From: Bacteroidales bacterium
Lineage (GTDB): Bacteria; Bacteroidota; Bacteroidia; Bacteroidales; UBA12481
Assembly (NCBI GenBank): GCA_041658425.1
Contig: JBBAAF010000002.1
Location: 57,156 to 121,155, forward strand
Direction: 5' to 3'
Length of the DNA: 64,000 nucleotides
A program made the translations under genes and the position numbers. Below are positions 2,040-53,191 of the stretch, piece by piece (the first letter of the stretch is position 1; each line of letters starts with the position of its first letter). Under the pieces are notes generated by a model that was given only the letters and a program-made list of their open reading frames with translations, ran no database searches and was not told the origin of the DNA.

Positions 2040-2111
2040 GGTTTCGTATTTGACTGATTATTATATTCTTTAATTGTGTCTTCGGATCAATATAGGTCTT
2101 CTGATCATTAA

Positions 2112-6612: not shown

Positions 6613-6674
6613 TTTACATATTATCCAATAAATGCCTAATGTCTAATCCCTATTATGGACGCAATTATGTGTCC

Positions 6675-7784
6675 CTACAATTTCAACCCGTTCAGGAATC
6701 CATAATAAGCCGGTTTCTTCCGGCACAGGCTATCGAACGGCAAAGGGCAGTCCCGCAATTTGAACATGGGCATAATCCAGCTGTTCGCATCGGACACCCC
6801 CCAGACGGTGATTCCATATCGCTGACCGGCCGGTACCGATTGTTTGTATACCTGCACCAGTGATTGGTATTTGTCCGATTGTTTTTTCAGCAATTCCGGC
6901 GTAAAAACCAGGCTGGTATCCCATTTCCAGTCGGAAATAAGAATGCTCACTTCCGATACATGAACCAATAATCCTGTGGCCGCAAGCCGTCGTAATCCAC
7001 TGGCAATTTCATCATCACTGGCCGATATTCCAATATGCATCTGCATCCCAAGCCCATGAATGGGTATTCCTCTTTTCTTAAAATCCTCCGCCAGTTTTAC
7101 AACCGCTTCAATCTTTTTCTGATATTTCGCGTATTGAAGATCAAAATCATTCAGGAAGAGCAGCACATCAGGATCAGCTTCATGTGCATATTGAAAAGCA
7201 CGGGCAATGTAATCCTTACCCAAATGTCTGGCCCAGAGGCTGCCCGGATTGTCTCCATGTGTCCCCTCTTCCATTCTGAGAGTGCCATCATCATGAAATG
7301 GCTCATTAACAACATCCCACGATGCAACTTTGCCTTTGTAATGTTTAACAACTGTTTGAATATGGGTTTTAAACAGGTTCTCCCAGGCAATCGAATCTCC
7401 CTGAAAATCTCTCAACCAGGCCATATTACTGAAGTCATGCCAAATCAGGGTAGTACCGTGAACCCGCTTATTATTTTTCAGTGCAAAATCAACGATAGTA
7501 TCCAGCGCTGAAAAATCGAACACTTTTTCCCCGGGATGCAGCGACTCAATTTTACCGGCATTTTCCGGAGTGATACTGTTGTACTCGTGCAGCACGATAT
7601 CACGGTAAGCACCATTTTCTTTCAATAAAACTTCTCCTGCAGCAACACCTACAGGAAAAGACGAGATAGATTGCAGACTTTCAGTTTTACCGGCCGGAAC
7701 CGTGGACCTGTGGTTGCAGGATACCAATACACAGACAATTAGTATGAACCCCGGTATAAAACAAGTTTTAATGGATTTCTTCAT
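6675..7784 (-). CDS. Glycoside hydrolase family 10 endo-beta-1,4-xylanase-like lipoprotein
   Basis: 369-aa ORF with a lipoprotein-type signal (LVSC). GH10 motifs are present: GTTLIWH, WDVVNEP (acid/base), GLGMQMH and VHVSEVS (nucleophile Glu position). Confidence 0.85.
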   Translation of the reverse strand: MKKSIKTCFIPGFILIVCVLVSCNHRSTVPAGKTESLQSISSFPVGVAAGEVLLKENGAYRDIVLHEYNSITPENAGKIESLHPGEKVFDFSALDTIVDFALKNNKRVHGTTLIWHDFSNMAWLRDFQGDSIAWENLFKTHIQTVVKHYKGKVASWDVVNEPFHDDGTLRMEEGTHGDNPGSLWARHLGKDYIARAFQYAHEADPDVLLFLNDFDLQYAKYQKKIEAVVKLAEDFKKRGIPIHGLGMQMHIGISASDDEIASGLRRLAATGLLVHVSEVSILISDWKWDTSLVFTPELLKKQSDKYQSLVQVYKQSVPAGQRYGITVWGVSDANSWIMPMFKLRDCPLPFDSLCRKKPAYYGFLNGLKL

Positions 7785-7786
7785 AA

Positions 7787-8590
7787 TTACAACTGATTAT
7801 TATACAGTTCATTAACCTCCCTGGAGGAAAGAGCGCGGTTATATACCCGGAAATCGCTTATATATCCGTTGAAGTGGAAAAAATCATCACACATTCCATA
7901 CCTTCCATAGCCAAGCGTAAATAATTCTTTTGTCGGAACAGATTTGAAGAAATCAGTATAAGTCGAATCGGAACCCAGGTTGTAATGCCGGTTCGTCATC
8001 TCAACTCCGTTTAAATATCCGGTATTTCCTGTAGCACTGACCACTGCCACAAAATGATACCATTTATCTTCTTCCAGATTTTCATTCGAATCAAAACAGA
8101 ACCGCTTATTGACAATGGTAAAATAGAGCTTTCGGTCGTTAATGTCCATCTTGTGCCCGACTTCCGCAATCATGCTATTGTGCGGACTGCCGGGATCCGA
8201 TTCGCCATAATAAAATATGGGTTGAATATCCCCGTCGAAAGCCCTGAATTTAAAGGTAACCGAAATGGTACCGAACTCAGGCTCTGATTTCAACCCCGCT
8301 TCAGTAATGAAGGATGGTATATCCAGAGAATCCTGTCCATCAAACTCAACAGCAGTTTTGTCACCGTCCGTGATCGCCCAGTTTACACCGTACAGTATAC
8401 CGTCGAAGTTATTCGGAGTGCAGTCCGAAGCAGTCGTACCACTCTGCTCATCAAATGAATAATGCAAAACCAGCCCGGAATCCGGATCATCACAATCCAG
8501 ATTAAAGGAATCCCTGCCGTCCTTATGGCACGCACTCATATAGGTGAAAGCAAGGATTGAACTGAATAAATACAAATTGCGCATGATCAT
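7787..8590 (-). CDS. LamG/concanavalin-like lectin-fold lipoprotein
   Basis: 267-aa ORF with a signal ending in Cys (YMSAC). Typical LamG end motif (GYISDFRVYNRALSSREV). Only 2 nt separate it from GH10. Confidence 0.55.
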   Translation of the reverse strand: MIMRNLYLFSSILAFTYMSACHKDGRDSFNLDCDDPDSGLVLHYSFDEQSGTTASDCTPNNFDGILYGVNWAITDGDKTAVEFDGQDSLDIPSFITEAGLKSEPEFGTISVTFKFRAFDGDIQPIFYYGESDPGSPHNSMIAEVGHKMDINDRKLYFTIVNKRFCFDSNENLEEDKWYHFVAVVSATGNTGYLNGVEMTNRHYNLGSDSTYTDFFKSVPTKELFTLGYGRYGMCDDFFHFNGYISDFRVYNRALSSREVNELYNNQL

Positions 8591-15424: not shown

Positions 15425-16891
15425 CTATTGAACACCTGTCCTGACATCCCACCACATTTTCTGGCCCCAAAAGTAATCTTTGATATTACCTTCGTATTCC
15501 TTTAAATTCACTGAATTCAGTCCAGCCTCGGTCAGTGGGTAAGGAAGCCTGAAAGGAGCGCGGTTATGGTCCGGAAAGGCACTGTTATAGGCCGGTGGAA
15601 GCAAGGGGACATCGGTCCTTCTGGCATCGGCCCAGGCTTCGTTATTCATCAGGAACAGGGCAAGATATTTCTGCGTATAGATCTTCTTGAGATCATCTGC
15701 ATTATTTTGCCATGCCACACCTTCAGTTGCCAGATAGGGGGCTATTGCAGCATCAGACACGCCATACTGTTGCATCGAAGCTGTAATCCCTTTTTCGTAT
15801 TCAGCCTGTGCAACTGCGGCCTGTCCTGTTCGCAAAGCGATTTCCGCTTTCAAAAAGCAAATCTCCGAATACCTGAAGAAACCGTCGTTAACATTATATT
15901 CATTACCTCCGGTGGGATTAGGATTGCCGCTTACAAATACCGGATTGAAATCAGAAATATCCTCCCTGATAAAAGGCGGAACAAAGCCGACCCTTTCAGA
16001 TCCCCTGTATTTGCCATCTGTTGTGGCCGGTACAAACCATATCGGCAGCCTTGGGTCATTGAAATTATTCAACAGGTCGACAACGATTTTTCCGCCACCT
16101 TCGTGATGGCAGCAATACCACCAGTACCAGAATCCCTCTTCCCAGGGAGAAGTACCGGGCCATCTGAGTTCGATGTTGTCGGCATTGCTTCCAAGTACCG
16201 GATAATCGGCAGGATTGCCAAACAATTCATTGATGATTGAGGTAGAAGTGGCGAGATCAACATTCGAAATCCTGACGGCAACTCTCAATCGAAGGGAATT
16301 GCAAAACATCTGCCACTTTGCGACATCGCCGCCATTCAGAACATCACCTTCTCCGATGGGATCATTGCCACCAGCCTTAAACAAATCAGCTGCCTTTTTC
16401 AAGTCATCAATGATCGCTTTGTAGATGTCTTCCTGCTTGTCAAATTTCGGCGCAATAATGCCCTCTGCAGCTTTTGAAGCTTCCGAATAAGGCATGTCAC
16501 GCCATTGATCGGTGGCAACCTGTGTCATCTGGGCCCTGAAAGTGAGGGCAGCTGCCAGCATATTTGTTTTACCGTCCTGTTCTGCTCCGGCGATGATTCT
16601 ATTTATGTTCGTCAGACCTGCGTAATAGCCTCCCCACTCTTCACCAACGGAAAGGTAAGACTGATTTCCTGCTCCAAGCCTGGAACCAACATAATTGGCA
16701 TGTTGTGCCCCCATGCTTCCAGGACTGAAATTTTCGCTGAAATTTACAATTACGGCACCAAAATGATTGGTTGTCGGTACCGAGGAAGGTTGATTGGGAT
16801 TGGTATTGTAGGTCTCAAAATTCTTCGTGCATGCCCCCAGCAGTGCCAGGCACATTATCAGAATGATCCCTATGTTCAATTGTTTTTTCAT
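15425..16891 (-). CDS. SusD/RagB-family outer-membrane glycan-binding lipoprotein
   Basis: 488-aa ORF with a lipobox (LGAC). Lies immediately downstream of a SusC-like gene and has the TPR-like SusD composition. Confidence 0.9.
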   Translation of the reverse strand: MKKQLNIGIILIMCLALLGACTKNFETYNTNPNQPSSVPTTNHFGAVIVNFSENFSPGSMGAQHANYVGSRLGAGNQSYLSVGEEWGGYYAGLTNINRIIAGAEQDGKTNMLAAALTFRAQMTQVATDQWRDMPYSEASKAAEGIIAPKFDKQEDIYKAIIDDLKKAADLFKAGGNDPIGEGDVLNGGDVAKWQMFCNSLRLRVAVRISNVDLATSTSIINELFGNPADYPVLGSNADNIELRWPGTSPWEEGFWYWWYCCHHEGGGKIVVDLLNNFNDPRLPIWFVPATTDGKYRGSERVGFVPPFIREDISDFNPVFVSGNPNPTGGNEYNVNDGFFRYSEICFLKAEIALRTGQAAVAQAEYEKGITASMQQYGVSDAAIAPYLATEGVAWQNNADDLKKIYTQKYLALFLMNNEAWADARRTDVPLLPPAYNSAFPDHNRAPFRLPYPLTEAGLNSVNLKEYEGNIKDYFWGQKMWWDVRTGVQ

Positions 16892-16938
16892 AATTCAATT
16901 TTTTAAGTTGTGGATTTAATCACTAGATCAACTGATAT

Positions 16939-19900
16939 TTAGAAGGATAATGCCAATTTCAGACCTAAGCTTCTTGAAGAAGGGATCTGCATCTGCTCAT
17001 ATCCCACACCGGCATTGCCGGTTCCAAAACCGGTCTCAGGATCAAGGTGAATATCGTTGGTCTTGTCGACATACAGCAAGGCCAGGTTCCTGGCAACAAA
17101 CGACACCCTTGCGGAATACATGCCCAGTTTCTTGGCAACTTTTCCAGGAAGGGTGTAACCAATGCTAAGCTCCCGCAATTTGATGAAAGATCCATCCATC
17201 ACCCAATATTCAGTCGTTCTCGCATATTGATTATAAAATTTCTGAGCGGTTACCCGTTTGGTATTCGGGGTACCGTCGGCCAGAACGCCCGGAACAACAA
17301 TACCGGTTTCCCTGACATTGGTAGCCCCTGTAAAAGGATCATTGAGGGTGAGGGAAGTGTTCCCAAACCTTGTGCCCCAGAATTTAGTACCACTTATGAT
17401 ATCACCGCCTTTGCGGCCGTCGATCAGGATGCCAAGATTGAATCCCTTATAGCTGAAGTTGTTCTGAAGGCCTCCGATCCAGTCGGGTGTGATGTTTCCA
17501 AGTTCAAAGTTACCGGGAGCATTTTGGGTAAGCCCGGCCGATGTTATAACCAGGTTACCCTGATCATCCCGCAGCCATTTCTGCCCCATGATAACCCCGT
17601 AGGGTTCTCCCGGTCTGGCTTCTATATAGGAACTCCACATGTCGGATATCCATAAAGATTCCAGATCACCATACAATTCATTGACTCTGTTATTGTTTTT
17701 TGCCCAGTTTAGTGTCAGGTCCCAGTTAAAGCCACCCTTCGACTGGATGACACTTGCTGAGAAAATCACCTCAACTCCTTTGTTTTCAATTTCGCCGGCA
17801 TTGATCAGCATGGAACTGTAACCTGCTGAAGTGGCAATGTCAACCGGCATGATCTGGTTCCGGGTTTTTAAATCGTAGTATGAAATATCGAGTTTAACCC
17901 GGTTATTGAAAAAGCGCATATCGAGACCAGCCTCGACCGAACCGGCGATTTCAGGTTTCAGGCCTACCGGCGGAAGGGTGCCCGGCAGGCTGAACATTGA
18001 TACTCCATTCCATGGAGATCCAATGGAATTGTAGGTTGCGGCAATCTGATAAGGACCGGTATCATTACCCACCTGGGCATAACTTGCTCTTACCTTGCCA
18101 TAGGAGAAGATCTTTGAATCGATCTTAAATGCATCTGTAAACACAAATCCCATGCTTACCGAAGGATAGAAATAGGACCAGCTATCCTTGGGCAACGACG
18201 AACTCCAGTCGTTACGTCCGGTTGCTCCCAGGAAGAGGTAGTTCTTATAAGAAAAGTTTACTGATCCAAGAACACTGTTTGTTACCTTCTTGGAATCGTA
18301 TTGAGAAACGCCGGGGGTTCCTGCAATGTTCCCTATGGTAAAGAAATCCGGTACCGTCAGGTTGTATGCATTAAGGCCCACTTCATGCCCTTCTTCAAGA
18401 CGGTAGTTAGCTCCGACAGTACCGTCGATCCGGAAATCTTCACCGATTTTCTTGTCAATCATGGCTAGGAAATCTGCATTGGTCTCCTGGGCAAATTTTT
18501 GGGTTTGCCAGAAATTACCGACCCCGTTGCCTTCATTACACTGGGCAAGCTTGATCTTTTTGCGCAACTCGTTATAATAATCAGTTCCGATCCTTCCTGT
18601 AAGAGTAATCCAATCTGCAATTTTATAATTTAAACTTGCATTGCCGAAAAAACGGTCCCTGGTTCTTGAGGCAGTGTTATGAAGCGATAAATAGGGATTG
18701 TCCATTTCGCCCAGAGAATAGGAATAGGTGTGGCCGAACTGATCGATTTCCTTCCAGTGTTCTTTAAGCGGTACTACGTCAACCTGGCGCTGGAACATTG
18801 CAAAAGTGGCAGCCGGGTTATCCCCGCCTCCGTCGTATCCCTGGCTTGGGAGGTTATTGCTGTGGTTATTCACATAGGTAAGGTTCGCCGAAGCTGACCA
18901 CTTATCCGATAACTTCAGGTCTCCGCTGACACTTGCCGTATTCTTGGTCAGATCGGTGTTGTAGACGGTACCCTTAATGTCATTGTTCGACAGAAATACC
19001 CTGATGGATCCGATATCGGAAGATTTTGACAGGGCAATCGAGTTATCGAGGTTGACTCCTGTTTCAAAGAAATCCTTCATATTATTCGGACGCGAAATCC
19101 ACAATTGGTCCTTACCGGTAAACTGGTCCAGCTTGAGACCTATATCCAACCGGGGTCCCCAGCTTCTGGGCTCACTGTCATTCACTCCGTTGCCCCAGCC
19201 ATCCACATAATTATATGAATATTTTTTGGCGAAATCCTGATAGGTAAGATTGGGATTACCCAATTCCGTTTTCTTTAGTTGCCAGTCATATTCGCTTCCG
19301 TACATCCCCCCGCCGTATGAATTCTGCCAGGTCGGGAAAATGCTTACGTTATCAAGGGTGACTGAACTGATCAGGTCGATTCCAAGCTTGTTCTTTGGTT
19401 GTGAACCCCTTTTCGTTGTGACAACAACAACGCCGTTGGCAGCGCGGCTGCCGTAAAGTGCGGCGGCGTTGGCCCCTTTCAGTACGCTCATCGACTCGAT
19501 GTTGCTCGGATCAAGGTCCATGGCCCCGTTGCCGTAATCCTGGCCTCCCCAGGCAGACATATCGGACGCGAAGTTGGTCATGGGGGTACCGTCAACGATC
19601 CATAACGGTTCGTTGTTACCGAACGAGTGGTTTCCACGGATGACAATCCTGGCTGAGGAGCCTACTGCACCGGTTGAATTGGTTACCTGCACCCCGGCGA
19701 TCTTTCCGGAGAGGGCGCTTACTATGTTTGTCGGCTTGACAGCATTTATTGCTTCATTACCAATATCCTGAACTGCATAACCAAGCGCCTTTTTTTCACG
19801 GCGAATTCCAAGGGCGGTAACAACCACCTCATCAAGGTTTATAACATCAGTTTCCAAACTGATATCATAATTGTTGGATGATGTTATTGGAACTTCCAGT

Positions 19901-20139
19901 TTACGGTAGCCTATTGATGAGAACACCAGGATGCCACCCTGACCCTGTATAGATAAAACAAACCGGCCGTCAACTCCGGTCGTGGTTCCATTTTGCGTCC
20001 CTTTTACCAAAACGGTTGCTGTTGGAATAGGCTGCTTATCTGCCGCAGAGGTGACTATTCCGGTCAATTGACGTGTCTGGCCGAAGAGAGTACCGGCAAA
20101 AAACACCGCCAACAGTACAAAAAATAGTTTTTGCTTCAT
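16939..20139 (-). CDS. SusC/RagA-family TonB-dependent transporter (no STN domain)
   Basis: 1066-aa ORF with a signal peptide. Carboxypeptidase-regulatory-like domain (GIVTSAADKQPIPTATVLVKG), TonB-box/plug region (VVVTALGIRREKKALGYAVQ) and a C-terminal barrel ending in F. Confidence 0.9.
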   Translation of the reverse strand: MKQKLFFVLLAVFFAGTLFGQTRQLTGIVTSAADKQPIPTATVLVKGTQNGTTTGVDGRFVLSIQGQGGILVFSSIGYRKLEVPITSSNNYDISLETDVINLDEVVVTALGIRREKKALGYAVQDIGNEAINAVKPTNIVSALSGKIAGVQVTNSTGAVGSSARIVIRGNHSFGNNEPLWIVDGTPMTNFASDMSAWGGQDYGNGAMDLDPSNIESMSVLKGANAAALYGSRAANGVVVVTTKRGSQPKNKLGIDLISSVTLDNVSIFPTWQNSYGGGMYGSEYDWQLKKTELGNPNLTYQDFAKKYSYNYVDGWGNGVNDSEPRSWGPRLDIGLKLDQFTGKDQLWISRPNNMKDFFETGVNLDNSIALSKSSDIGSIRVFLSNNDIKGTVYNTDLTKNTASVSGDLKLSDKWSASANLTYVNNHSNNLPSQGYDGGGDNPAATFAMFQRQVDVVPLKEHWKEIDQFGHTYSYSLGEMDNPYLSLHNTASRTRDRFFGNASLNYKIADWITLTGRIGTDYYNELRKKIKLAQCNEGNGVGNFWQTQKFAQETNADFLAMIDKKIGEDFRIDGTVGANYRLEEGHEVGLNAYNLTVPDFFTIGNIAGTPGVSQYDSKKVTNSVLGSVNFSYKNYLFLGATGRNDWSSSLPKDSWSYFYPSVSMGFVFTDAFKIDSKIFSYGKVRASYAQVGNDTGPYQIAATYNSIGSPWNGVSMFSLPGTLPPVGLKPEIAGSVEAGLDMRFFNNRVKLDISYYDLKTRNQIMPVDIATSAGYSSMLINAGEIENKGVEVIFSASVIQSKGGFNWDLTLNWAKNNNRVNELYGDLESLWISDMWSSYIEARPGEPYGVIMGQKWLRDDQGNLVITSAGLTQNAPGNFELGNITPDWIGGLQNNFSYKGFNLGILIDGRKGGDIISGTKFWGTRFGNTSLTLNDPFTGATNVRETGIVVPGVLADGTPNTKRVTAQKFYNQYARTTEYWVMDGSFIKLRELSIGYTLPGKVAKKLGMYSARVSFVARNLALLYVDKTNDIHLDPETGFGTGNAGVGYEQMQIPSSRSLGLKLALSF

Positions 20140-20482: not shown

Positions 20483-21368
20483 ATGAAACAAATTACGCAA
20501 GAAGATATCGCCCGGAAACTAAATGTCACCCGGATCACAGTGTCGAAAGCACTGAGGGATCATCCTGATATATCGGCCGCTATGAAGAAACGGGTGCTAC
20601 AGACCGCCGATGAGATGGGCTATTTGCCGAATCAGATTGCACAACAGTTAACCACCCGGACCACCAAAACCATCGGGGTGATTGTTCCCGATCTCGAAAA
20701 CAGCTTTTTCAGCCACGTGGTGAATAGCATTATCGATGCGGCAACCGATCGCGGTTACCAGATTTTACTCGCGGTGTCCAGGGAAAATGAGGAAATCGAG
20801 AAAAAGAACATCCGGAACCTGAGTGGTGTTCGATGATGACAAAGGGGTTCGCATGGCCATCGACCGGCTGGTTGTTGCCGGCTATTCACGTATCGCACAT
20901 TTTGCGGGGTATTCAACGACCAATATCGGAAAAGAAAGACTCGGGGGGTATAAGGCTGCCCTGATAAATAACAGCCTTATTGTCCGTGACAAGTGGATCA
21001 TTGAAGGAGGTTTTGAGCTGAACGACGGATATCATTCGTTCATGAAACTGTACGAACGGCATAATTTGCCGGAAATCGTACTAGCGGTAAACGACCGGGT
21101 GGCATTGGGCGCTTATAAAGCCATCAGGGAGCTGGGATTGCGCGTGCCTGAGGATATCGGGGTCGTTGGATTCGGCTTTACCGAAACGGCCGAAATGTTC
21201 AATCCTCCCTTATGCGTGATCAGTCAGGATCCCCGAAAAATGGGCCATCTTGCTGCCAACCGCCTCATGGATGAAATTCAGTCTTCATCAGTTTCAGGAG
21301 AAGAAATCAGAATTGATGAGACTTTTCAATGGAATAGTTCAGTTAAACAAAAAAATAGAGTGCAATGA
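20483..21368 (+). pseudogene. LacI-family regulator disrupted by an internal deletion and frameshift
   Basis: The HTH and early core (MKQITQEDIARKLNVTRITVSKALR ... IRNLSGVR stop at 20836) lie in one frame. The rest of the core (VFDDDKGVRMAIDRLVVAGYSRIAHFAG ...) lies in another frame starting at 20823. About 40 aa normally found between these blocks are missing. Confidence 0.75.
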
Positions 21369-25090: not shown

Positions 25091-25654
25091 GTGAAGACCT
25101 CTGCACAGCTTTATGAAAATCTCCTCCTCAAAAGGATAAAAGAAGAGGATAAATCCGCTTTTTCCATCCTATTTTCTGCCTATTACGCTGATCTTGTTAT
25201 GTTCTCCACCACGTTTACTCATAATAAAAGTGTTGCAGAGGAAATCGTCCAGGACGTATTCGTCCGCTTTTGGGAAGGCCGACATGCTCTTAAAATTACA
25301 GGTTCCCTGAAATCATACCTATTGAAATCTGTCCAGAATGGCTGTATTGATTGGTTACGGCATATGAAAATGCGGCATGCCTATGAGCAGTATTTTGTGG
25401 AAAACAGTTCAGCTTTTGACAACGACAACGAGTCCTATCAGCTTTGTTCTGAATTACAGGAACGGATGCAGACCGCTTTGGAACACCTTCCAAAAGAAGT
25501 GGCGGAATCCTTTCTTAAGAATAGGTTTGAGGGTTTAGGTTATCAGGATATTGCAAAACTGCAGGGTGTCTCTGAAAGAACGGTCGAGGTACGCATTGGT
25601 AAGGCGTTGAGACTGCTACGGGAACATCTCCGGGACTATTTCATTACCATTTAA
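25091..25654 (+). CDS. ECF-type RNA polymerase sigma-70 family factor
   Basis: 187-aa ORF with a GTG start. Region 2 (AEEIVQDVFVRFWE) and a region 4 HTH (LGYQDIAKLQGVSERTVEVRIGKALRLL) are present. Confidence 0.85.
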   Translation: MKTSAQLYENLLLKRIKEEDKSAFSILFSAYYADLVMFSTTFTHNKSVAEEIVQDVFVRFWEGRHALKITGSLKSYLLKSVQNGCIDWLRHMKMRHAYEQYFVENSSAFDNDNESYQLCSELQERMQTALEHLPKEVAESFLKNRFEGLGYQDIAKLQGVSERTVEVRIGKALRLLREHLRDYFITI

Positions 25655-25718
25655 AAAAAGATGATTTTTCAATGTGGTTTTTTTAGTAAGAAACGTCTTT
25701 GATATTGAAAGGAATTAT

Positions 25719-26765
25719 ATGACTGAACTGGAACAAGAAATCATTGACCGTTTAATTGGCGCCTTTTTAGCCGGGAAAATGTCAGCGGAGGAACGAACTG
25801 CACTGGAGACCTGGATCCTCGAATCCGCAGAAAACAAGAATTATTTTCAGCAGGTGAAAAATATCTGGGAAGTTGCCTGCAGTGCTACTGAATTATCTCA
25901 GATTGATACCGGAAAGGCTCTGAAAAAAACCATGCACCGCATTTCCGGAGGCTGGAGACCGGTACGAATTGTGTCCGTTTTGCAAAAAGTTGCCGCAGTT
26001 CTCCTGCTGCCCTTACTGGCAGGCGGATACTTTTTGGGAGGATACCAAATGCTGAAGAAACAAAGGAAACAAGTGATCTATCATGAGGTCACGGCTTCTT
26101 CCGGAACCAGGTCCAGTTTAAATCTGGCTGACGGAACTATCGTGTGGTTAAACTCCGGAAGCCACATCAAGTATCCGGACAGGTTCACCGGCAATAACCG
26201 GTTGGTCTATCTTGAAGGGGAGGCTTTTTTTTCCGTCAAGGCAGATAAAACACATCCTTTTTACGTAGAAACAAATAAGCTCACCCTTAAAGCTACCGGA
26301 ACCCAGTTTAACCTTATGGCCTACCCGGGCAGTTCAGATCTTCAGGTGACTTTAGTGGAAGGCGCCGTAGATGTGTTTCATTCCGGAAAGGATAAGAAGC
26401 AAGCCTTAATCGGGACTTTACATCCTAACGAGCATCTTCGGTTCGATACCCTGAGTTCAGGTGTTAGCATAAATTCCGGTGATGTGTACAAATATTTCGC
26501 GTGGAAAGATGGGAAACTGATATTCCGCAATGAATCGCTGGCTGAGGTTGTCAAGGTCTTAAACAGGCTCTTTCATGCCGATATTACCATCATGGATAAA
26601 GACATTGAGGATTACCGGTACAGGGCAACATTCCGGGAGGAATCATTAAGTGATATCCTTTACCTCCTCAAAATGTCCTCCCCTATTAAATATCGCGAGA
26701 TAGCCAGCAAGGCTATGCCGGACGGATCATTTTCAAAAAGAAATATTCTAATTTATAAGAAATAA
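25719..26765 (+). CDS. FecR-family anti-sigma factor / transmembrane sensor
   Basis: I place the start at the Met 15 codons into the ORF (MTELEQEII). One central TM helix (VAAVLLLPLLAGGYFLGGY). Periplasmic FecR domain (LADGTIVWLNSGSHIKY, EGEAFFSV). Confidence 0.85.
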   Translation: MTELEQEIIDRLIGAFLAGKMSAEERTALETWILESAENKNYFQQVKNIWEVACSATELSQIDTGKALKKTMHRISGGWRPVRIVSVLQKVAAVLLLPLLAGGYFLGGYQMLKKQRKQVIYHEVTASSGTRSSLNLADGTIVWLNSGSHIKYPDRFTGNNRLVYLEGEAFFSVKADKTHPFYVETNKLTLKATGTQFNLMAYPGSSDLQVTLVEGAVDVFHSGKDKKQALIGTLHPNEHLRFDTLSSGVSINSGDVYKYFAWKDGKLIFRNESLAEVVKVLNRLFHADITIMDKDIEDYRYRATFREESLSDILYLLKMSSPIKYREIASKAMPDGSFSKRNILIYKK

Positions 26766-26938
26766 CAACAGATTACTAACCTTTTAAACCGAACAATATT
26801 ATGGATACAGGATGAACGCTTCAGCAGCGTTGACAAAAAAAAGGAAGAGTGCTGAAACACTCTCCCTTTAGAGATAGGTCAACTCAACATTTGGACGATT
26901 AAGCCGATGAATTATTAACCTAAATACTTTGCAAAACT

Positions 26939-38205: not shown

Positions 38206-40596
38206 ATGAAACAAAATCGACGCATCAAAGAATTTAGAAAGTGGACCATGTTCTTAAGAGTCATTTATCCATTGCTTCTTTTGTTTATGCCAGCAGCAAA
38301 CTCCGGCATTAAAGCCCAAAACAAGGATGAACTTGACATTTCAAACTATTGCTCGGAAATTATTGTAAATGGTAACATAAAGGTCTCACTGTACACACAT
38401 ACCATGTTCAGGGTTCGCACATCTGAACTTAAAGGGGAAAAATTCCCTCCAAAATATGAAATCCCATTCCTGATCGGCAAACTTAGCAACTGGAAACCTG
38501 TATCATTTTCACAAAAGGAGGATAACGAATATCACTACATTGAAACCGACAGATTACAGATCAGGATATCGAAGCGTGACTGGTCATGGACGGTATGGAC
38601 ACCCGGAGGAGGAAAACAGATCTACCCGTCGGCAGGGAAAATTTATGGCATGTTTAAGGACGGCTATTCGGTTTTCGACAATGCCAGTGCATTTGATGAA
38701 AGGAACAAGAACAGCCGTTTTTCCCATTGGTTTTATAATCCCGCAACACAAAAGTATACTGATATTTACCTGTTCGAGGATTTGATATTTGATAAGTATT
38801 TTATCTATGGACCTGATTATCCCTCATTATTCAGTCAGTTTAACGAGCTTGTAGGACCTGAACCGATGCTCCCGATTAAAGGCTATGGATTCTTTCAGAC
38901 ACAGCATATTGGATGTTCGGGAAACCAGGAGAAATTGCTGGAACTCGCCCGTAAATTAAGAGAAAGAGATATTCCGTGTGACAACCTGATCATCGATTTT
39001 GAATGGGGTGACGGATGTCCAGGTGAGGATGAAAAATACTGGGGACAATCCCTGGATTGGTCTCCTGCCTATAGTAACCCTCTGACACCGAAACAGATGA
39101 TCGCCAAACTGGATTCCATGCATTTCAATGTCATGCTGATCCATCACAGTGCCCCGGATTTTTCTAACCGCGAGCTGGATACCCGCAGAAGGCCGGGTGA
39201 CTGGACCTCCAAGGTTTATCCGGAAAATGTGTGGTGGGAAAAATACCGGGAGAAGCTGGATATAGGCGTAAGCGGCACCTGGCAGGATACCCGCCAGAAT
39301 GATTTGACCGACGGATTGATCTGGTCGTGGACACAGAATTATATCGGACCTGAAAAAAGGGTCCTTTTTCTGGGCTGCAGGAAAATGATGGATTTGAATC
39401 CCTTTGAGCTGGAGCGTGACAATACCATTCCCGCCAATGACCTGATCGGTTCCCGGCGCTATCCCTTCAGATGGACAGAGGATGTGAGCAATACCTACCG
39501 CGAACTGAAATGGCACGTAAACGGCATCACAAATACCCATGGTTCGATGAAAGGCGTGAATTATATTACTGCCGATTGTTTTGGAAAGAACTGGAAGGTA
39601 CAGGCACGATGGAACCAGTTTATTGATTTCAACTCAGTTTCACGCTCTCACACATCCAAACCCTGGGAAATAATTACCGATTTCGGGGCGTTGGCAGAAA
39701 TTATGAATTTCAGGAAGAATGAGGTTCAGGAATCCCCTTCACTAGAGAAAACAGATCCTCTTCAAAACAATAAAGAGGTATTGGCAAAAACCGGACAAAC
39801 AGCAGAACCCAGTGTACGTATCCATCGAAAGCTCAGATACCGGCTTATCCCATACCTCTATTCAACAGCTTTTGTGAACTACCTGACCGGTTATCCGATC
39901 AGCCGGCCATTGCTTCTGGCATTTCCTAATGATCTGCACTGCAACAAAGATCAATGGCCTTTGCAATATATGTTTGGAGAGAATTTCCTGGTTGTCCCTG
40001 TTTATGCTGATTTCAACAGCATGGAAATTTATCTGCCCGAAGGATCAACATGGATTGACTATTGGGACAAAGCCGTATATAAAGGAGGACAGGTGATCGA
40101 TTATAATACTTCCGATATTGAGAAGCTTCCTTTGTTTGTCAGGTCCGGTTCAATCATACCTATGCGTAAAGAACAGAACTGGCTTGACACTGGAGAGATC
40201 TGGGATCCGCTGACGCTCGATATTTATCCCGACAGCACTTCTTCCTTTATATTGTATGAAGATGACAAGCGCACCACCTATTACCAAAAAGGGGAATTCA
40301 GCAAAACTACAATTTCTTGCCAGGCAGATCCTTCAGGAACAGAAATCAAAATCGGAGAGGCTGCAGGTGATTACAAAGGAAAACCTGAAAGCCGCAAAAT
40401 AGTTCTCCAGGTTAACCTGGTAGACAAGACTCCGGCCCAGGTGCAGGGAAATAAATGTAATATGGTAAAATGCAATAATTTGGATGGTATCAACGAAGCT
40501 AAATGCGGTTGGTTGTATGATAAGGAGACTAGGAGAGTATTAATAATAGTTGAAACAAAGACTTCTGAAAGTACTATCATTCAAATAATTAAATGA
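38206..40596 (+). CDS. Distant glycoside hydrolase family 31-like enzyme, secreted
   Basis: 796-aa ORF with a signal peptide. GH31-like landmarks (PIKGYGFFQTQ, IPCDNLIIDFEW, GTWQD, RRYPFRWTED, LPLFVRSGSIIPM), but the signature positions diverge (WQDTRQ rather than W.DMNE; ADCFG rather than DIGGF). Confidence 0.6.
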   Translation: MKQNRRIKEFRKWTMFLRVIYPLLLLFMPAANSGIKAQNKDELDISNYCSEIIVNGNIKVSLYTHTMFRVRTSELKGEKFPPKYEIPFLIGKLSNWKPVSFSQKEDNEYHYIETDRLQIRISKRDWSWTVWTPGGGKQIYPSAGKIYGMFKDGYSVFDNASAFDERNKNSRFSHWFYNPATQKYTDIYLFEDLIFDKYFIYGPDYPSLFSQFNELVGPEPMLPIKGYGFFQTQHIGCSGNQEKLLELARKLRERDIPCDNLIIDFEWGDGCPGEDEKYWGQSLDWSPAYSNPLTPKQMIAKLDSMHFNVMLIHHSAPDFSNRELDTRRRPGDWTSKVYPENVWWEKYREKLDIGVSGTWQDTRQNDLTDGLIWSWTQNYIGPEKRVLFLGCRKMMDLNPFELERDNTIPANDLIGSRRYPFRWTEDVSNTYRELKWHVNGITNTHGSMKGVNYITADCFGKNWKVQARWNQFIDFNSVSRSHTSKPWEIITDFGALAEIMNFRKNEVQESPSLEKTDPLQNNKEVLAKTGQTAEPSVRIHRKLRYRLIPYLYSTAFVNYLTGYPISRPLLLAFPNDLHCNKDQWPLQYMFGENFLVVPVYADFNSMEIYLPEGSTWIDYWDKAVYKGGQVIDYNTSDIEKLPLFVRSGSIIPMRKEQNWLDTGEIWDPLTLDIYPDSTSSFILYEDDKRTTYYQKGEFSKTTISCQADPSGTEIKIGEAAGDYKGKPESRKIVLQVNLVDKTPAQVQGNKCNMVKCNNLDGINEAKCGWLYDKETRRVLIIVETKTSESTIIQIIK

Positions 40597-40686
40597 TGGG
40601 GAATTGGAAACTTGAATAGGGAAAAAAATTAAAGGACTTAAGTCCTTCAAAACGATTTTAAATCAACCATAATGAAAAAAAGATAA

Positions 40687-41769
40687 ATGAAAAATATACA
40701 CCGAAGATCCTTTCTAAAGTCAGGTGCGTTATCATTATCCGGACTCATGCTCCCAGGTACCGTTCTGACATTTTGCAAAGAAGGATCTTTAATTAAGGAT
40801 TTTAAGAAGAGGTTTAAAGACAAAACATTGGGTTGTTTCATGGGTGCGGCCATTGGAGACTCAATGGGCGGACCTGTAGAATGCCAGCATTACCTGAGGA
40901 TCAGAAAATATGCCGGCAATTTTAATGATCTTCTGCCATTTGGAAAACCAATTTCTTTTTTTGATCCCCCCGGAAATGGATGGGCTCAACGAAGGGACCC
41001 CGGAACTATTACCGACGATACATATATCAGGATTGATTTGCTGAACTTCTTCCTCCATGTTAACCCACCTTATTCTGCCGAGAAACTGGTAGAATATCTC
41101 CTTGAAAATTCTGATTTTTCGGGATGGTGGGAACCACCTAAGAACCAATTGAATCGGATTAAAAATGGTGAATTCCCAGCGAAAAATGCCCGGCAGTTTA
41201 TGGATATCCTTTCAGCAGTTGTTGCTGGTCAATCGGCTGCCTTCAAAAATGATGCATCAATCGATTCAGTTGTTAAAACTGTCCTAGATAATTCCGGTGA
41301 TAAGACTAGAAAATTGTTTGAGCGGGCCATCAACATAGGGCTTGACTCGCAATCGGCCGATAAACTCTACGATAACCTTTATGCACACGCTTCTGTTGCT
41401 AATTCGACACATACTGGTGAATATAACAGGCCTGAAGGCCCTCTCCCACCCGTGGAAGATATCAAATATAGTGAAAATGAATGCTCTTCAATAGCATTTG
41501 CTGAGCAGCAGCCATGGGCGCTTGCTTACCTTGTATTTGGCAATGGGGATCCGGAAAAAACGCTCCTCACAGCTGTCAAAGGAGGAAGAGACGCCGACAG
41601 TATTGCTACAAATACAGCTTCCTGGCTTGGTGCTTTATATGGATTATCAGTATGGCCTGAGAAATGGATCTCTGCTGTACTGAGATCGAATCTTGTGGAT
41701 TTCGATTTAATGAAACTTGGCGATAAGCTGGCTGAAAAAGCTCTGCGACAGGGATTTGTTCAACTTTAG
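40687..41769 (+). CDS. Tat-exported ADP-ribosylglycohydrolase (ARH/DraG)-fold protein
   Basis: 360-aa ORF with the twin-arginine motif HRRSFLK (nt 40699-40719). ARH N-terminal metal-site block (GCFMGAAIGDSMGGPVE) and C-terminal block (GGRDADSIATNTASWLGALYG). Confidence 0.8.
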   Translation: MKNIHRRSFLKSGALSLSGLMLPGTVLTFCKEGSLIKDFKKRFKDKTLGCFMGAAIGDSMGGPVECQHYLRIRKYAGNFNDLLPFGKPISFFDPPGNGWAQRRDPGTITDDTYIRIDLLNFFLHVNPPYSAEKLVEYLLENSDFSGWWEPPKNQLNRIKNGEFPAKNARQFMDILSAVVAGQSAAFKNDASIDSVVKTVLDNSGDKTRKLFERAINIGLDSQSADKLYDNLYAHASVANSTHTGEYNRPEGPLPPVEDIKYSENECSSIAFAEQQPWALAYLVFGNGDPEKTLLTAVKGGRDADSIATNTASWLGALYGLSVWPEKWISAVLRSNLVDFDLMKLGDKLAEKALRQGFVQL

Positions 41770-41824: not shown

Positions 41825-44140
41825 ATGAAATCAAAGAAATTGATAAGTGTTATACTTCTGTTAATATGCATTGCATATTCTCATGGTACTTATTCCCAGT
41901 CCTCAAATGAAAAGTTAACAGGAAAGACACTCGTGGCTGAAATGAGATCGTATAATGGCAGGACAACTTTGTTTATTAACGGGCAACCGCACGATGGAAT
42001 TTTCTGTTCAACACTAGCCAGCAATAAGCAGGAATTCATAGAAGCTGGATTTGATGTATTTAATATTATAGATGGAGGTAATCCGTGGGTTTCTGATAGT
42101 CTCTACGATTTCCAGGAAACTGATGAATATAACCTGGATAATATAATTGACAATTTCCTTCAGGAGAAACCTGACGCAAAGATCATTGTAAGGCTTTCAT
42201 ATGGGTATCCAAGAAACTTTTGGTGGGCTGTTGAGCATAAAGACCAGCAAGCAGTACCACATTGGAGAGATTTGGGCCGTAAAATGCCATCCTATGCATC
42301 CCTTAAATGGCGAGAAGAAGCCGGTAAGGCGTTGGAGATCACGGTCAGGCATCTGGAGGAGAAGTTTGGCAACAACATTATTGGATATCTTCCGGGAAAC
42401 GGAAGCTGTGGGGAGAATTTTGAACAGTATGCCTTTACTGAAATTGGCGATCGTTTTATTAATGGATATCAGATGGGTGATTACAGTGAACCCATGCAGC
42501 AGGCATATCGTGAGTATGTAAAAGATAAATACAAAACGATTCAGGCTGTTAACGATGTTTATCGATTAAACCTGCAGTCATTCAGTGAATTGAAGATACC
42601 GGAACCTGACCGGAGGCTGAATGCCACATTTGGGATCCTCAGGTCAATCAGCAATGAACAGGCTGTTATTGACTACTTTGAGATTTTTAACCGCCAGGTT
42701 TACGAAACAGTGGCTCATTTTGCAAATAAGATCAAAGAAGCTACCAACCATAATAAACTTGTATTTGTCTTTTACGGATATAACTGGCTTGAACAGCCGA
42801 GGGGTGGAGTAACACAATCGAGAAGCGGTCATGTCAATCTGGAAGAAATGATCTCCTGTCCGGATGTAGACTATATTGCAGCCCCCTACGAGTATTCATT
42901 CCGTCAGCTGGAAGGAGTTGTATCATCACAAGGGGTAGTTGGTAGTGTCATCAGACGGGGGAAGCAATTTCTTCATGAATTGGACGGTTACACATACCTG
43001 GCAAAGTACTGGCTATCGGAGCATCATAATCCAACAACAGCAGCTGAGAGTGTTAATTTATTACGCCGCGACCTTACCAAAGCGCTTATGGATGGAGCTT
43101 CTGCCTGGTTTATGGATCCTGTCGCCGGAGGCCTGTATAATAGCCCGATGGGTGAAGAGCTGAAAAGAACCCTTGAAATGGGCCGCAAAATATATTTCGA
43201 TGCAGGCGTAGATAATCGCCAGGTGGCTGTTGTTTTACAGTCACGGGATGGCTTTTATTACAGGGAAGGTGAATCACTGCGTTCACCACTTATCCAGCAA
43301 TTCAAACAGTTTGAACTGGAACGCATGGGACTTGGCTACGACGATCTGATGTTGGAAGACCTGAAATATCTCGATCCAAAATCAACTGAACAATATAAAT
43401 TCTGGATTTTCCCAAGCTCAGTCCATTTTGATGATGCACAGCTTGAACTGATTAAAAAGCATTGTATGCGTAACGGGAATCATATACTGTGGGTTTATGC
43501 TCCGGGAGCAGTTTCAGAAAAAGGTATTGATCTCCAACGTATGGAAATGATAACCGGGTTTAAATATGGGTACACCATGGAGCAGGGAGAACTGGCCGTT
43601 AAAACCATCGAGGGAGGACAGGGATATCTTGCCGGAAGGAAATCTCCAATCGTTTATGGAACCTATGGAGAACTTTCACCTGATTTCATTAATTATTATT
43701 CTTCTCTTCGTCATTATCCCGGTTCTGATGTCGGATTCAGTGTAAGCCCCAGGTTCTATGTTAAAGAAGCAGATAATATTCTGGGATATATGCCAGATAT
43801 AGCAGATCAGCCTGCCGGATTGGCAGTAAAAAACATGGGTAACTGGGTCTCAGTCTATAGTGCTGCACCTCTTGTCCCCAAAATCATTTTAAGAAATATT
43901 GCCAGAGTGGCTGGTTGCCACGTCTATACTGACTTCCTCGGACAAACTTATCAAAGTCAGAACTATGTTGGCTTTTTTGCACATGAAACTGGTATCTGCA
44001 ACTTCAAACTGCCATACCGCTCCAGGATTACTGACGTTTATAATAATAAGGTAATTGCAGAAGATGCTGACTCTTTTAGTATTTATCTCCGGGTCAACGA
44101 TGCCGTATTGTTTAACTACGAACCTGCCATATCAAAATAA
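41825..44140 (+). CDS. Secreted protein of unknown family, tandem paralog A (possibly a TIM-barrel glycosidase-like fold)
   Basis: 771-aa ORF with a signal peptide. I recognise no family motif. Its paralog follows directly downstream. Confidence 0.6.
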   Translation: MKSKKLISVILLLICIAYSHGTYSQSSNEKLTGKTLVAEMRSYNGRTTLFINGQPHDGIFCSTLASNKQEFIEAGFDVFNIIDGGNPWVSDSLYDFQETDEYNLDNIIDNFLQEKPDAKIIVRLSYGYPRNFWWAVEHKDQQAVPHWRDLGRKMPSYASLKWREEAGKALEITVRHLEEKFGNNIIGYLPGNGSCGENFEQYAFTEIGDRFINGYQMGDYSEPMQQAYREYVKDKYKTIQAVNDVYRLNLQSFSELKIPEPDRRLNATFGILRSISNEQAVIDYFEIFNRQVYETVAHFANKIKEATNHNKLVFVFYGYNWLEQPRGGVTQSRSGHVNLEEMISCPDVDYIAAPYEYSFRQLEGVVSSQGVVGSVIRRGKQFLHELDGYTYLAKYWLSEHHNPTTAAESVNLLRRDLTKALMDGASAWFMDPVAGGLYNSPMGEELKRTLEMGRKIYFDAGVDNRQVAVVLQSRDGFYYREGESLRSPLIQQFKQFELERMGLGYDDLMLEDLKYLDPKSTEQYKFWIFPSSVHFDDAQLELIKKHCMRNGNHILWVYAPGAVSEKGIDLQRMEMITGFKYGYTMEQGELAVKTIEGGQGYLAGRKSPIVYGTYGELSPDFINYYSSLRHYPGSDVGFSVSPRFYVKEADNILGYMPDIADQPAGLAVKNMGNWVSVYSAAPLVPKIILRNIARVAGCHVYTDFLGQTYQSQNYVGFFAHETGICNFKLPYRSRITDVYNNKVIAEDADSFSIYLRVNDAVLFNYEPAISK

Positions 44141-46635: not shown

Positions 46636-47967
46636 ATGAGCAATGGCAATGATGAAGGCCTGAAAAGGGAAATTGGCGTTGTAGGATTAGCCTCCAACGC
46701 CATCAACAGCATTGTAGGCGGTGGAATTTTCGTGTTGCCTGCGATTGTTGCAGGCATGATGGGACCTTCAGCTATTGTAGCTTATCTTATTTGTGGAGTC
46801 GCGGTAATCCTGATAACACTCTGCTTTGCCGAGATTGGAAGCAAGGTAATTGCAAGCGGCGGAGCTTATGCTTATGTAGAAGCGGCTTTTGGAATTTTTG
46901 CCGGATTTCTGACAAATACCTTGTTCTGGTTCGGGTTCGGCGTTCTGAGTGATGCTGCAATTGCAAACGCTATGGCGGATATGCTGGCCATAAATTTTCC
47001 TGCTTTTAATTTACCATTCTTCAGAGCGCTGTTTTTTTTGCTCATATATACGGGATTTACCCTGGTCAATATCAGAGGGGTTAAACAAGGTATCAATATG
47101 GTTAAAATCAATACTCTTATCAAACTGATCCCTCTGTTGGTATTGATTACCTACGGGTGGGCCGGCGTATCGGCAAAGAACCTGCAATGGTCGCAGCTGC
47201 CTGCACTCAAAGATATTGGCGAGGTATCTCTGATCCTGTTCTTTGCTTTTGCGGGCGGGGAGATGGCTTTGAACAACAGCGGTGAAATAAAAAATCCCAG
47301 GCGCACTGTACCTTTCGGATTACTGCTGGGTATTGGAACAGTTGTTATTTTTTATGTATTGATTCAAACCATTTCGCAGGGCGTGCTTGGGCCGGAACTG
47401 GCGTTAAACAAGGAGGCTCCGCTTGCCGCAGTTGCCAAAAGGCTGATGGGCGGATTTGGATCTGCATTAATGATTTCAGGAGCCGTGATTTCCATTTTCG
47501 GAGCCTTAAGCGGAGGGGTTTTATCTTACCCGAGGTTATTGTTCGCCGGATCAAGGAATAACCTTTTACCGGTATTCCTTGCCAAAATCCATCCGAGGTT
47601 TGCAACGCCGTACTGGGCTATCTGCACCTATTCCGTGCTGGTTCTGATCTTTACAATATCTGGTGGTTTTAAGCAATTAGTTATCGTTTCCAGCGCATCC
47701 CTTCTGTTGATTTACCTGGCTGTGGTGCTGTCAACCATAAAACTGAGGCTTAAAAAGGATCCTTTGCCCCCAGGAACTTTTAAACTCCCCGGAGGGATCA
47801 TTATACCTTCTGTCACCCTCGTCCTGATCGTCTGGTTATTATCCCGTTTAACCAAAAATGAAGCCATAGGGATCGCCTTGATGATTCTTGCATTGACTCT
47901 TATTTATCTCATAATGAAATTAATAAAAACAAATCAGCATTCTACACAGCAAAATAAACTCCCATGA
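46636..47967 (+). CDS. APC-superfamily amino-acid permease
   Basis: 443-aa ORF with about 12 hydrophobic helices and the N-terminal GGGIFVLPA motif typical of amino-acid/polyamine permeases. Its stop overlaps the GH3 start (ATGA at 47964-47967). Confidence 0.8.
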   Translation: MSNGNDEGLKREIGVVGLASNAINSIVGGGIFVLPAIVAGMMGPSAIVAYLICGVAVILITLCFAEIGSKVIASGGAYAYVEAAFGIFAGFLTNTLFWFGFGVLSDAAIANAMADMLAINFPAFNLPFFRALFFLLIYTGFTLVNIRGVKQGINMVKINTLIKLIPLLVLITYGWAGVSAKNLQWSQLPALKDIGEVSLILFFAFAGGEMALNNSGEIKNPRRTVPFGLLLGIGTVVIFYVLIQTISQGVLGPELALNKEAPLAAVAKRLMGGFGSALMISGAVISIFGALSGGVLSYPRLLFAGSRNNLLPVFLAKIHPRFATPYWAICTYSVLVLIFTISGGFKQLVIVSSASLLLIYLAVVLSTIKLRLKKDPLPPGTFKLPGGIIIPSVTLVLIVWLLSRLTKNEAIGIALMILALTLIYLIMKLIKTNQHSTQQNKLP

Positions 47968-52738: not shown

Positions 52739-53191
52739 ATGAGAAACTGGAATTATCTGAAGCGCCCGGTTGGTGCAGGTTTACTGGCAACATCATTGAT
52801 GTCAGTACTTTCATCCTGCAGTTCAGCCGTTCAAAAATTGGATGGGAAAAGCTTTGTTCCGATGCTTCTTCAAAAAGGCACAACGGATAAAGGCAGGAAT
52901 CTCTACTGGCATTTTCCCAACAACTGGGGGCCGACCGGTCCGGGAATCGCAACTACCAGCACCATACGAAGCAGCGACTGGAAGCTTATTTACTGGTATG
53001 AAAACCAGCATTTTCAATTGTTTAACATCCTTGAAGACATTGGTGAACTTCACAACCTGGCTGGTGAAAATCAGAAGAAAGTGAAAGAACTGGCAAAGGA
53101 ATTGGGGCAATATCTCCGCAGTGTGGATGCACAGCGTCCAATATTCAAGAGCACCGGAAAACCGGTTCCCTGGCCTGATGAATTGATTTAG
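52739..53191 (+). pseudogene. Sulfatase remnant: a lipoprotein-type signal joined directly to a sulfatase C-terminal subdomain
   Basis: 150-aa ORF. Residues 30-150 match the C-terminal part of S1 sulfatases (DGKSFVPMLLQ, LYWHFP, RSSDWKLIYW, LFNILEDIGELHNLA). The whole catalytic N-domain, including the FGly motif, is absent. Confidence 0.7.

Follow-up and report, generated by a model that had tools for sequence, protein, structure and literature searches.

Within the window, by which we mean the whole stretch of 64,000 nucleotides of Bacteroidales DNA that was analysed, all genes from 25091 to 62280 lie on the plus strand. An adjacent SusC/SusD pair (SusC at 26939, SusD at 30369), a regulator and carbohydrate-active enzymes on this one strand together constitute a PUL. 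The gene studied here, which encodes a protein with an ADP-ribosylglycohydrolase (ARH) fold, lies among the following features:

25091..31889, plus strand: head of the locus, with an ECF sigma factor, a FecR-type anti-sigma factor, a SusC-like TonB receptor with an STN domain and a SusD-like protein
32907..34301 and 34319..35890, plus strand: glycine dehydrogenase in two subunits, GcvPA/GcvPB-like (PF02347, E = 2.4e-51; PF21478)
38206..40596, plus strand: GH31-family gene with a Sec signal peptide, the conserved upstream neighbour in the related loci L001 and L003
40687..41769, plus strand: the ARH gene
41825..44140, plus strand: 771-aa secreted protein with a weak match to the GH42 TIM barrel, the downstream neighbour, 71-72% identical in the related loci L001 and L002
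44297..46600, plus strand: tandem paralogue (767 aa) of the 771-aa protein, 82% identical to it
46636..47967, plus strand: APC amino-acid permease, among GH genes

After SusD, the order is SDR, the two-subunit glycine-dehydrogenase-like pair, GH42, GH31 and the ARH gene, which is followed by the two 770-aa paralogues, the APC amino-acid permease, GH3 and a GH43/GH29-like protein. The locus ends, in order, with a sulfatase fragment, a sulfatase, GH29, a beta-helix protein and two more sulfatases. The substrate of this PUL is a sulfated glycan that probably contains fucose. A radical-SAM/SPASM gene, which could encode a sulfatase maturase, lies upstream.

Both 770-aa paralogues have signal-peptide-like N-termini, match GH42 with an E-value of about 5e-6 and gave no NCBIfam hit; they probably represent an undescribed glycoside-hydrolase family. 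An earlier note on this DNA, made from the sequence alone, had placed the ARH gene between a GH31-like gene and two unknown secreted proteins. The GH31 gene upstream and the two secreted proteins downstream were indeed found, but the latter are not wholly unknown given their weak GH42 match. The glycine dehydrogenase pair sits inside the PUL, between SDR and GH42, and neither GcvT nor GcvH was seen among the larger ORFs of the window. Such a pair and an APC permease are unusual for a glycan locus, and they might point to an amino-acid-decorated substrate.

A second, separate SusC/SusD PUL occupies the minus strand (15425..20139 and 78..8590), with GH10, GH2, GH127 and Laminin_G_3 proteins; it is unrelated and of the xylan or arabinan type. 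Promoter and terminator scans around the ARH gene returned nothing above background except a hairpin in the 90-nt spacer between GH31 and the ARH gene. This hairpin is a near-perfect palindrome at 40629..40650 (core AAGGACTTAAGTCCTT), which the terminator scan reported on the minus strand only.

The ARH gene is a genuine ORF of 360 aa, starting at the first ATG after a stop codon. Its product was matched in two stretches by PF03747 (ADP_ribosyl_GH) with an E-value of 9e-26 and 91.6 bits, compared with a gathering score of 26.2. Scores for the NCBIfam models of DraG (TIGR02662, 33.4 versus 337 bits) and Tri1 (NF041672, 29.7 versus 490 bits) were below the respective cut-offs. The features within the gene are as follows:

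40699..40719, plus strand: twin-arginine motif HRRSFLK, aa 5-11, with the h-region extending to about aa 29
40843..40881, plus strand: ARH block 1, GAAIGDSMGGPVE, aa 53-65, in which E65 corresponds to DraG E28 and ARH3 Glu41
41011..41022, plus strand: ARH block 2, TDDT, aa 109-112, with the metal ligands T109, D110 and D111 corresponding to DraG T59/D60/D61
41191..41193, plus strand: codon CGG for R169, a position occupied by Gly in 95 of 95 relatives, so that the substitution is specific to the window lineage
41204..41209, plus strand: deletion junction with the sole remaining copy of ATATCC, the 6-nt direct repeat that flanks the missing 123 nt in L003 and L001
41581..41601, plus strand: ARH block 4, GGRDADS / GGRDADSIATNTASWLGALYG, from aa 299, with D302/D304/S305 corresponding to DraG D243/D245/T246

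The metal site was mapped by aligning a profile of 98 relatives to solved structures (R. rubrum DraG residues are numbered as the chain index minus 5). In this profile-to-PDB alignment, all seven metal-site residues were present in the window protein: E65, T109, D110, D111, D302, D304 and S305. The role of these residues in the binuclear metal site of DraG/ARH3-type enzymes has been described, and ARH3 Glu41 is the catalytic 'Glu flap' residue (PMC7050489). Loss of metal ligands on proper alignment, which the earlier note had raised as a reason to abandon its reading, was thus not observed relative to DraG. R301, which precedes the DxD(S/T) block, is invariant in the family of the window gene, whereas other ARHs have Gly at that place. 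Of the four conserved blocks expected in an ARH, the Gly-rich substrate loop (G-N-G-A-x-M-R type), located between blocks 2 and 4, is missing from the window protein. The earlier description of both diagnostic metal-site blocks therefore stands as far as their presence and ligands are concerned, but it is incomplete, with one of the four ARH blocks gone.

The N-terminus of the window protein, MKNIHRRSFLKSGALSLSGLMLPGTVLTFC, consists of the twin-arginine motif, a mildly hydrophobic h-region rich in Gly, Ser and Leu, and Cys30. The stretch that follows HRRSFLK is SGALSLSGLMLPGTVLTF, and we scored the whole as agreeing with the Tat motif [ST]-R-R-x-F-L-K and the weakly hydrophobic h-region expected after it. 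Cys30 is part of LTFC, which could be a lipobox, though an atypical one. Because an RR-x-hydrophobic motif was found in 60 of the 67 relatives whose sequence extends 35 or more residues upstream of block 1, the twin-arginine motif of the window protein is not a chance match; the signal pointed out in the earlier note is present at aa 5-11 and is shared by most of its family. The remaining seven relatives resemble truncated gene calls that start inside the h-region, and a Cys at a lipobox-like position occurs in 39 of the 67. Another 27 relatives have short N-termini, some of them cut gene calls and some (P0083, P0099) apparently genuinely cytoplasmic. Judged from these sequences, the predicted twin-arginine signal is a conserved trait of the family. 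By analogy with other Tat-exported metalloproteins, Tat export would suit a protein that needs Mn or Mg to be loaded in the cytoplasm.

A structure prediction, proposed in the earlier note, was made for the closest intact relative, P0002, and the AF2 model reached a pLDDT of 91.9. Foldseek searches with this model gave MJ1187, Tri1, ARH3 and DraG as top matches, and all 50 top PDB matches were ARH-fold proteins. The window protein (AF2 pLDDT 90.2) and P0002 are both predicted to adopt the all-alpha orthogonal-bundle ARH fold.

The window protein is shorter than its homologues (360 versus 386-420 aa). Alignments with 22 and then about 97 relatives placed the difference in a single clean gap: after ...ARQFMDI, the window protein lacks 41 residues (QGGGGGWWQPLAIIHAGNIKKAYEVTSELCSIWKTGLAKNI in P0002) and picks up again at LSAVVAG. 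The missing block (QGGGGGWWQP...IWK...) is present in every other near-full-length relative (about 97). In DNA alignments with the two closest loci, L003 and L001, exactly 123 nt are missing, in frame. Such an exact deletion between short ATATCC direct repeats is the signature of replication slippage or microhomology-mediated deletion. The missing block was not found in the rest of the window, which contains no second ARH gene. G169R lies five residues upstream of the junction.

Within the block, 14 of 41 positions are at least 90% conserved, compared with 71 of 311 elsewhere, and it ranks 27th among 312 sliding windows of 41 aa by conservation. The deleted residues correspond, in the P0002 model from AF2, to the loop 172-182, the two helices that come next (183-188 and 193-206) and the first part of helix 210-225. 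The full-length profile aligned the family consensus kqGGgggwwqpvail with SSSCGAAMRIYPLGIV of MJ1187 (1T5J), where the loop reads CGAAMR, in a segment that we take to be the canonical ARH G-N-G-A-x-M-R loop. MJ1187 was the only solved structure to which the Gly-rich loop aligned by sequence, and it did so with the full-length profile only; a profile of the central region alone gave nothing significant against ARH3 and DraG for the deleted block. The deleted block is accordingly read, from sequence, as putatively equivalent to the ARH substrate loop together with two helices, and its equivalence to ARH3 Gly133-Gly138 is drawn from motif order, the MJ1187 alignment and the GNGxxMR motif. In ARH3, Gly133, Ser134, Tyr135 and Gly138 of the Gly-rich loop contact adenosine and pyrophosphate, and the equivalent residue ARH1 Gly130 is absolutely conserved (PMC6309922).

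The family is rare. A phmmer search with P0002 against 1.84 billion representatives returned 17 sequences at E ≤ 1e-30, 112 at 1e-10 and 566 at 1e-3, and a family-pattern scan of genome contigs was dominated by distant Streptomyces ARHs of about 25% identity. One family member, P0056, belongs to Flavivirga eckloniae. Gene order close to the ARH gene is conserved. L003 has GH31 followed by ARH, and L001 has GH2, GH140-like, GH31, an FAD oxidoreductase, ARH, the 771-aa protein (71% identical), GH3 and GHL10, and then a Sde182 nucleoside-hydrolase-like gene, GH29 and a beta-helix protein. In L002, a sulfatase and GH29 precede ARH, which is followed by a 761-aa protein (72% identical) and sulfatases. 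The order GH31, ARH and GH42-like protein of about 770 aa recurs in other Bacteroidota, but conservation of the 771-aa downstream partner does not extend to the planctomycete locus L086; the pairing of ARH with this protein is specific to Bacteroidota.

More distant members, from Planctomycetota and another Bacteroidota MAG, lie beside GHL10, PF12831 FAD oxidoreductases, GH42 and GH39/GH106, as well as a 3-keto-disaccharide-hydrolase-like protein and sulfatases. One member that has no signal peptide adjoins biosynthetic genes (sulfotransferase, epimerase, GT41). The PF12831 FAD-dependent oxidoreductase (about 460-473 aa) recurs at or near ARH genes in both Bacteroidota and Planctomycetota (L001 8572..9993, L005 6531..7904, L086 11247..12668); the window locus lacks it. 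Repeated neighbours of ARH genes also include GHL10-like and Sde182 nucleoside-hydrolase-like genes. Two members are fusions: P0081 joins the ARH domain to a SASA carbohydrate esterase, and P0120 combines a Sec signal, an N-terminal module of 240 aa, an ARH domain that contains GGGGGWW and, at the C-terminus, a malectin domain.

Because GH and sulfatase loci of two or more phyla repeatedly contain members, because the exported form predominates, because the Gly-rich loop has Trp-Trp in place of Ala/Met-Arg and the DxDS block is preceded by an invariant Arg, and because P0081 carries a SASA esterase fusion and P0120 a malectin domain, a carbohydrate-directed activity is a reasonable hypothesis, for which the family would be a credible candidate. 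The particular linkages suggested in the earlier note (furanosyl, ribosyl-type or sugar-amino-acid) are guesses. Intact members would be made in the cytoplasm, probably be loaded there with two metal ions, and then reach the periplasm or the cell surface, already folded, through Tat export; some may be lipid-anchored. The loci that encode them would serve the breakdown of sulfated, fucose-containing glycans. In an oligosaccharide that has been imported, the enzymes would most likely hydrolyse a bond at the anomeric carbon of one of the sugars by means of the conserved Glu/Asp binuclear metal site, with the family-specific Gly-rich loop QGGGGGWW in place of the pyrophosphate-binding loop of true ADP-ribosylhydrolases. 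We infer the export with metals and the carbohydrate substrate of intact members, the latter from genomic context and the fusions. That intact members such as P0002 and P0003 are the first carbohydrate-active ARH-fold enzymes, cutting a linkage in a sulfated, fucose-containing marine glycan, is a tentative proposal which we hold to be possible rather than probable.

Because the Gly-rich substrate loop was lost by deletion, the window copy is a probable inactive remnant. The 123-nt in-frame deletion between two ATATCC repeats would have removed this loop together with the two helices behind it, and G169R, at an invariant Gly, would be further damage. We therefore infer a loss of activity; if expressed and assayed, the window protein would probably be dead or unstable. 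The gene is most likely a recently inactivated allele that is still an open frame. Gene decay is not unusual in this region, as the window also holds two truncated genes:

52739..53191, plus strand: C-terminal fragment of a sulfatase (PF16347), 150 aa, aligning to residues 373-488 of a 493-aa sulfatase
20823..21368, plus strand: truncated LacI-type regulator, 181 aa, GTG start, with the C-terminal half of the periplasmic-binding-protein domain and no DNA-binding domain

The sulfatase remnant neighbours intact sulfatases. A separate observation concerns P0085, which, compared with the near-identical P0045 (metagenomic), lacks, in frame, 2 aa of the Gly loop and 88 aa beyond it; these reflect either recurrent decay in the family or metagenome-assembly artefacts. 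Overall, the account that fits best, to which we assign a probability of roughly 0.6, is an exported, carbohydrate-directed ARH subfamily whose copy in the window was inactivated by the 123-nt deletion. The glycan-directed reading of the earlier note holds up as a reasonable hypothesis for the family, through the fold, the Tat motif, the GH and sulfatase loci, the fusions and the changed loop, but not for the window copy, with its deleted loop and G169R.

Several observations count against inactivation and would fit a shortened protein that still functions, with the 41-aa block a dispensable excursion, the metal site kept and the specificity the same or altered. The reading frame is intact, the deletion being a multiple of three, and all seven metal-site residues are retained. 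Pairwise dN/dS between the window gene and its closest orthologue is 0.13, similar to the 0.105 of the adjacent GH31 gene, but at a dS of 0.56 this value mostly reflects history that predates a recent deletion; a relative-rate count gave 24 substitutions on the window branch versus 19 on that of P0002, which are similar numbers. Neither dN/dS nor this count discriminates between relaxed and continuing selection. AF2 modelled the shortened protein with a pLDDT of 90.2 and with helix 165-171 running continuously into the remainder of the next helix, although AF2 is insensitive to destabilising deletions. Against these points, the block is absent from the window protein alone among about 98 near-full-length relatives, 14 of its residues are nearly invariant and it includes what corresponds to the ARH substrate loop, and G169R adds a change at an invariant Gly, so that we consider a functional shortened protein unlikely. 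A deletion that arose in assembly or sequencing, with a full-length gene in the organism, is quite improbable. The exact window protein was found on one contig only, and the internal deletions of metagenomic P0085 relative to its close relative may likewise have a technical cause, but a repeat of 6 nt is much too short for an assembly graph to collapse on it, the exact deletion between short direct repeats is what replication slippage classically leaves, and the window lineage also carries G169R beside the junction.

The family as a whole could instead be a genuine extracytoplasmic hydrolase of ADP-ribose or nucleotide sugars, either scavenging ribose from NAD/ADP-ribose compounds, a role proposed for the ADP-ribosylglycohydrolases of Bacteroidetes rus loci, or removing toxin-placed ADP-ribose from envelope targets. 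Its catalytic metal site does not differ from that of ARH enzymes, ADP-ribosylglycohydrolases have been reported in rus-type PULs (10.1101/574913), and the nucleoside-hydrolase-like Sde182 gene occurs in two related loci. This reading is distinctly improbable, since no ribokinase or rus-type gene was present among window ORFs of at least 150 aa, no ADP-ribosyltransferase gene lies nearby, the scores for DraG (33 versus 337 bits) and Tri1 (30 versus 490 bits) are low, GGGGGWW takes the place of the pyrophosphate and adenine loop, and the fusions are to carbohydrate, not nucleotide, modules. The narrower readings of the window protein as a Tri1-like immunity protein or as a DraG were rejected because of scores far under the cut-offs and the genomic context.

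To our knowledge, and in the papers searched, ADP-ribose conjugates inside cells are the substrates of every ARH-fold enzyme characterised so far. From these, the subfamily described here is set apart by its predicted export, its conserved position beside GHs and sulfatases in two phyla, the fusion of some members to carbohydrate modules and its remodelled loop, and it offers a concrete starting point in the search for a new catalytic scaffold that acts in marine glycan turnover. If the tentative proposal of carbohydrate-active ARH-fold enzymes is true, intact members would cut a linkage that is not handled by classical glycoside hydrolases and would found a new enzyme family, of which the window copy would be a decayed allele. 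Lacking the loop, the window copy is the wrong one to express, and the intact orthologues P0002 and P0003 are preferable. The deletion also illustrates that an open, well-annotated ORF in a PUL can still be a dead gene.

In the literature searched, there was no report of an ARH-fold glycan hydrolase, and the nearest systems were the ADP-ribosylglycohydrolases that occur in the ribose-utilisation (rus) PULs of Bacteroidetes (Glowacki et al., bioRxiv 10.1101/574913). Like the window locus, these are SusC/SusD loci of Bacteroidota with ARH-family genes, none of which has a demonstrated activity. Rus PULs are, however, defined by ribokinases, a ribose transporter and RusR, whereas the window locus is without these and has GH31, GH42, GH3, GH29 and sulfatases instead; neither a PfkB ribokinase nor a ribose transporter was found among the 45 window ORFs of at least 150 aa. 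The eukaryotic enzymes ARH3 and ARH1 share with the family the fold, the binuclear Mg site and the catalytic Glu flap (PMC6309922, PMC7050489) at about 14-18% identity, but the family does not conserve their loop residues for adenine stacking and pyrophosphate binding, and the window copy has lost these positions by deletion.

Among proteins of known structure, the archaeal MJ1187 (PDB 1T5J), whose substrate is unknown, was the best match both by profile (E = 2.4e-20) and by structure (Foldseek E = 2e-11, TM to target 0.79); unlike the family, it has no signal peptide, carries the loop CGAAMR and has no known role in glycan breakdown. The ADP-ribosylarginine hydrolase immunity protein Tri1 (PDB 6DRE) was the second-best Foldseek hit and has the same ARH fold, but the window protein scored only 30 versus 490 bits with NF041672, and no ADP-ribosyltransferase toxin gene is adjacent. 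DraG (PDB 2WOC, 3G9D) shares the all-alpha ARH fold (Foldseek TM to target 0.77), and blocks 1, 2 and 4 align residue for residue, all Mn ligands included. DraG is cytoplasmic and acts on the ADP-ribosyl-arginine of nitrogenase, whereas the family has QGGGGGWW at the position of DraG's Gly-rich loop (the window copy being without any loop), an extra invariant Arg before DxD(S/T), a Tat signal and a PUL context.
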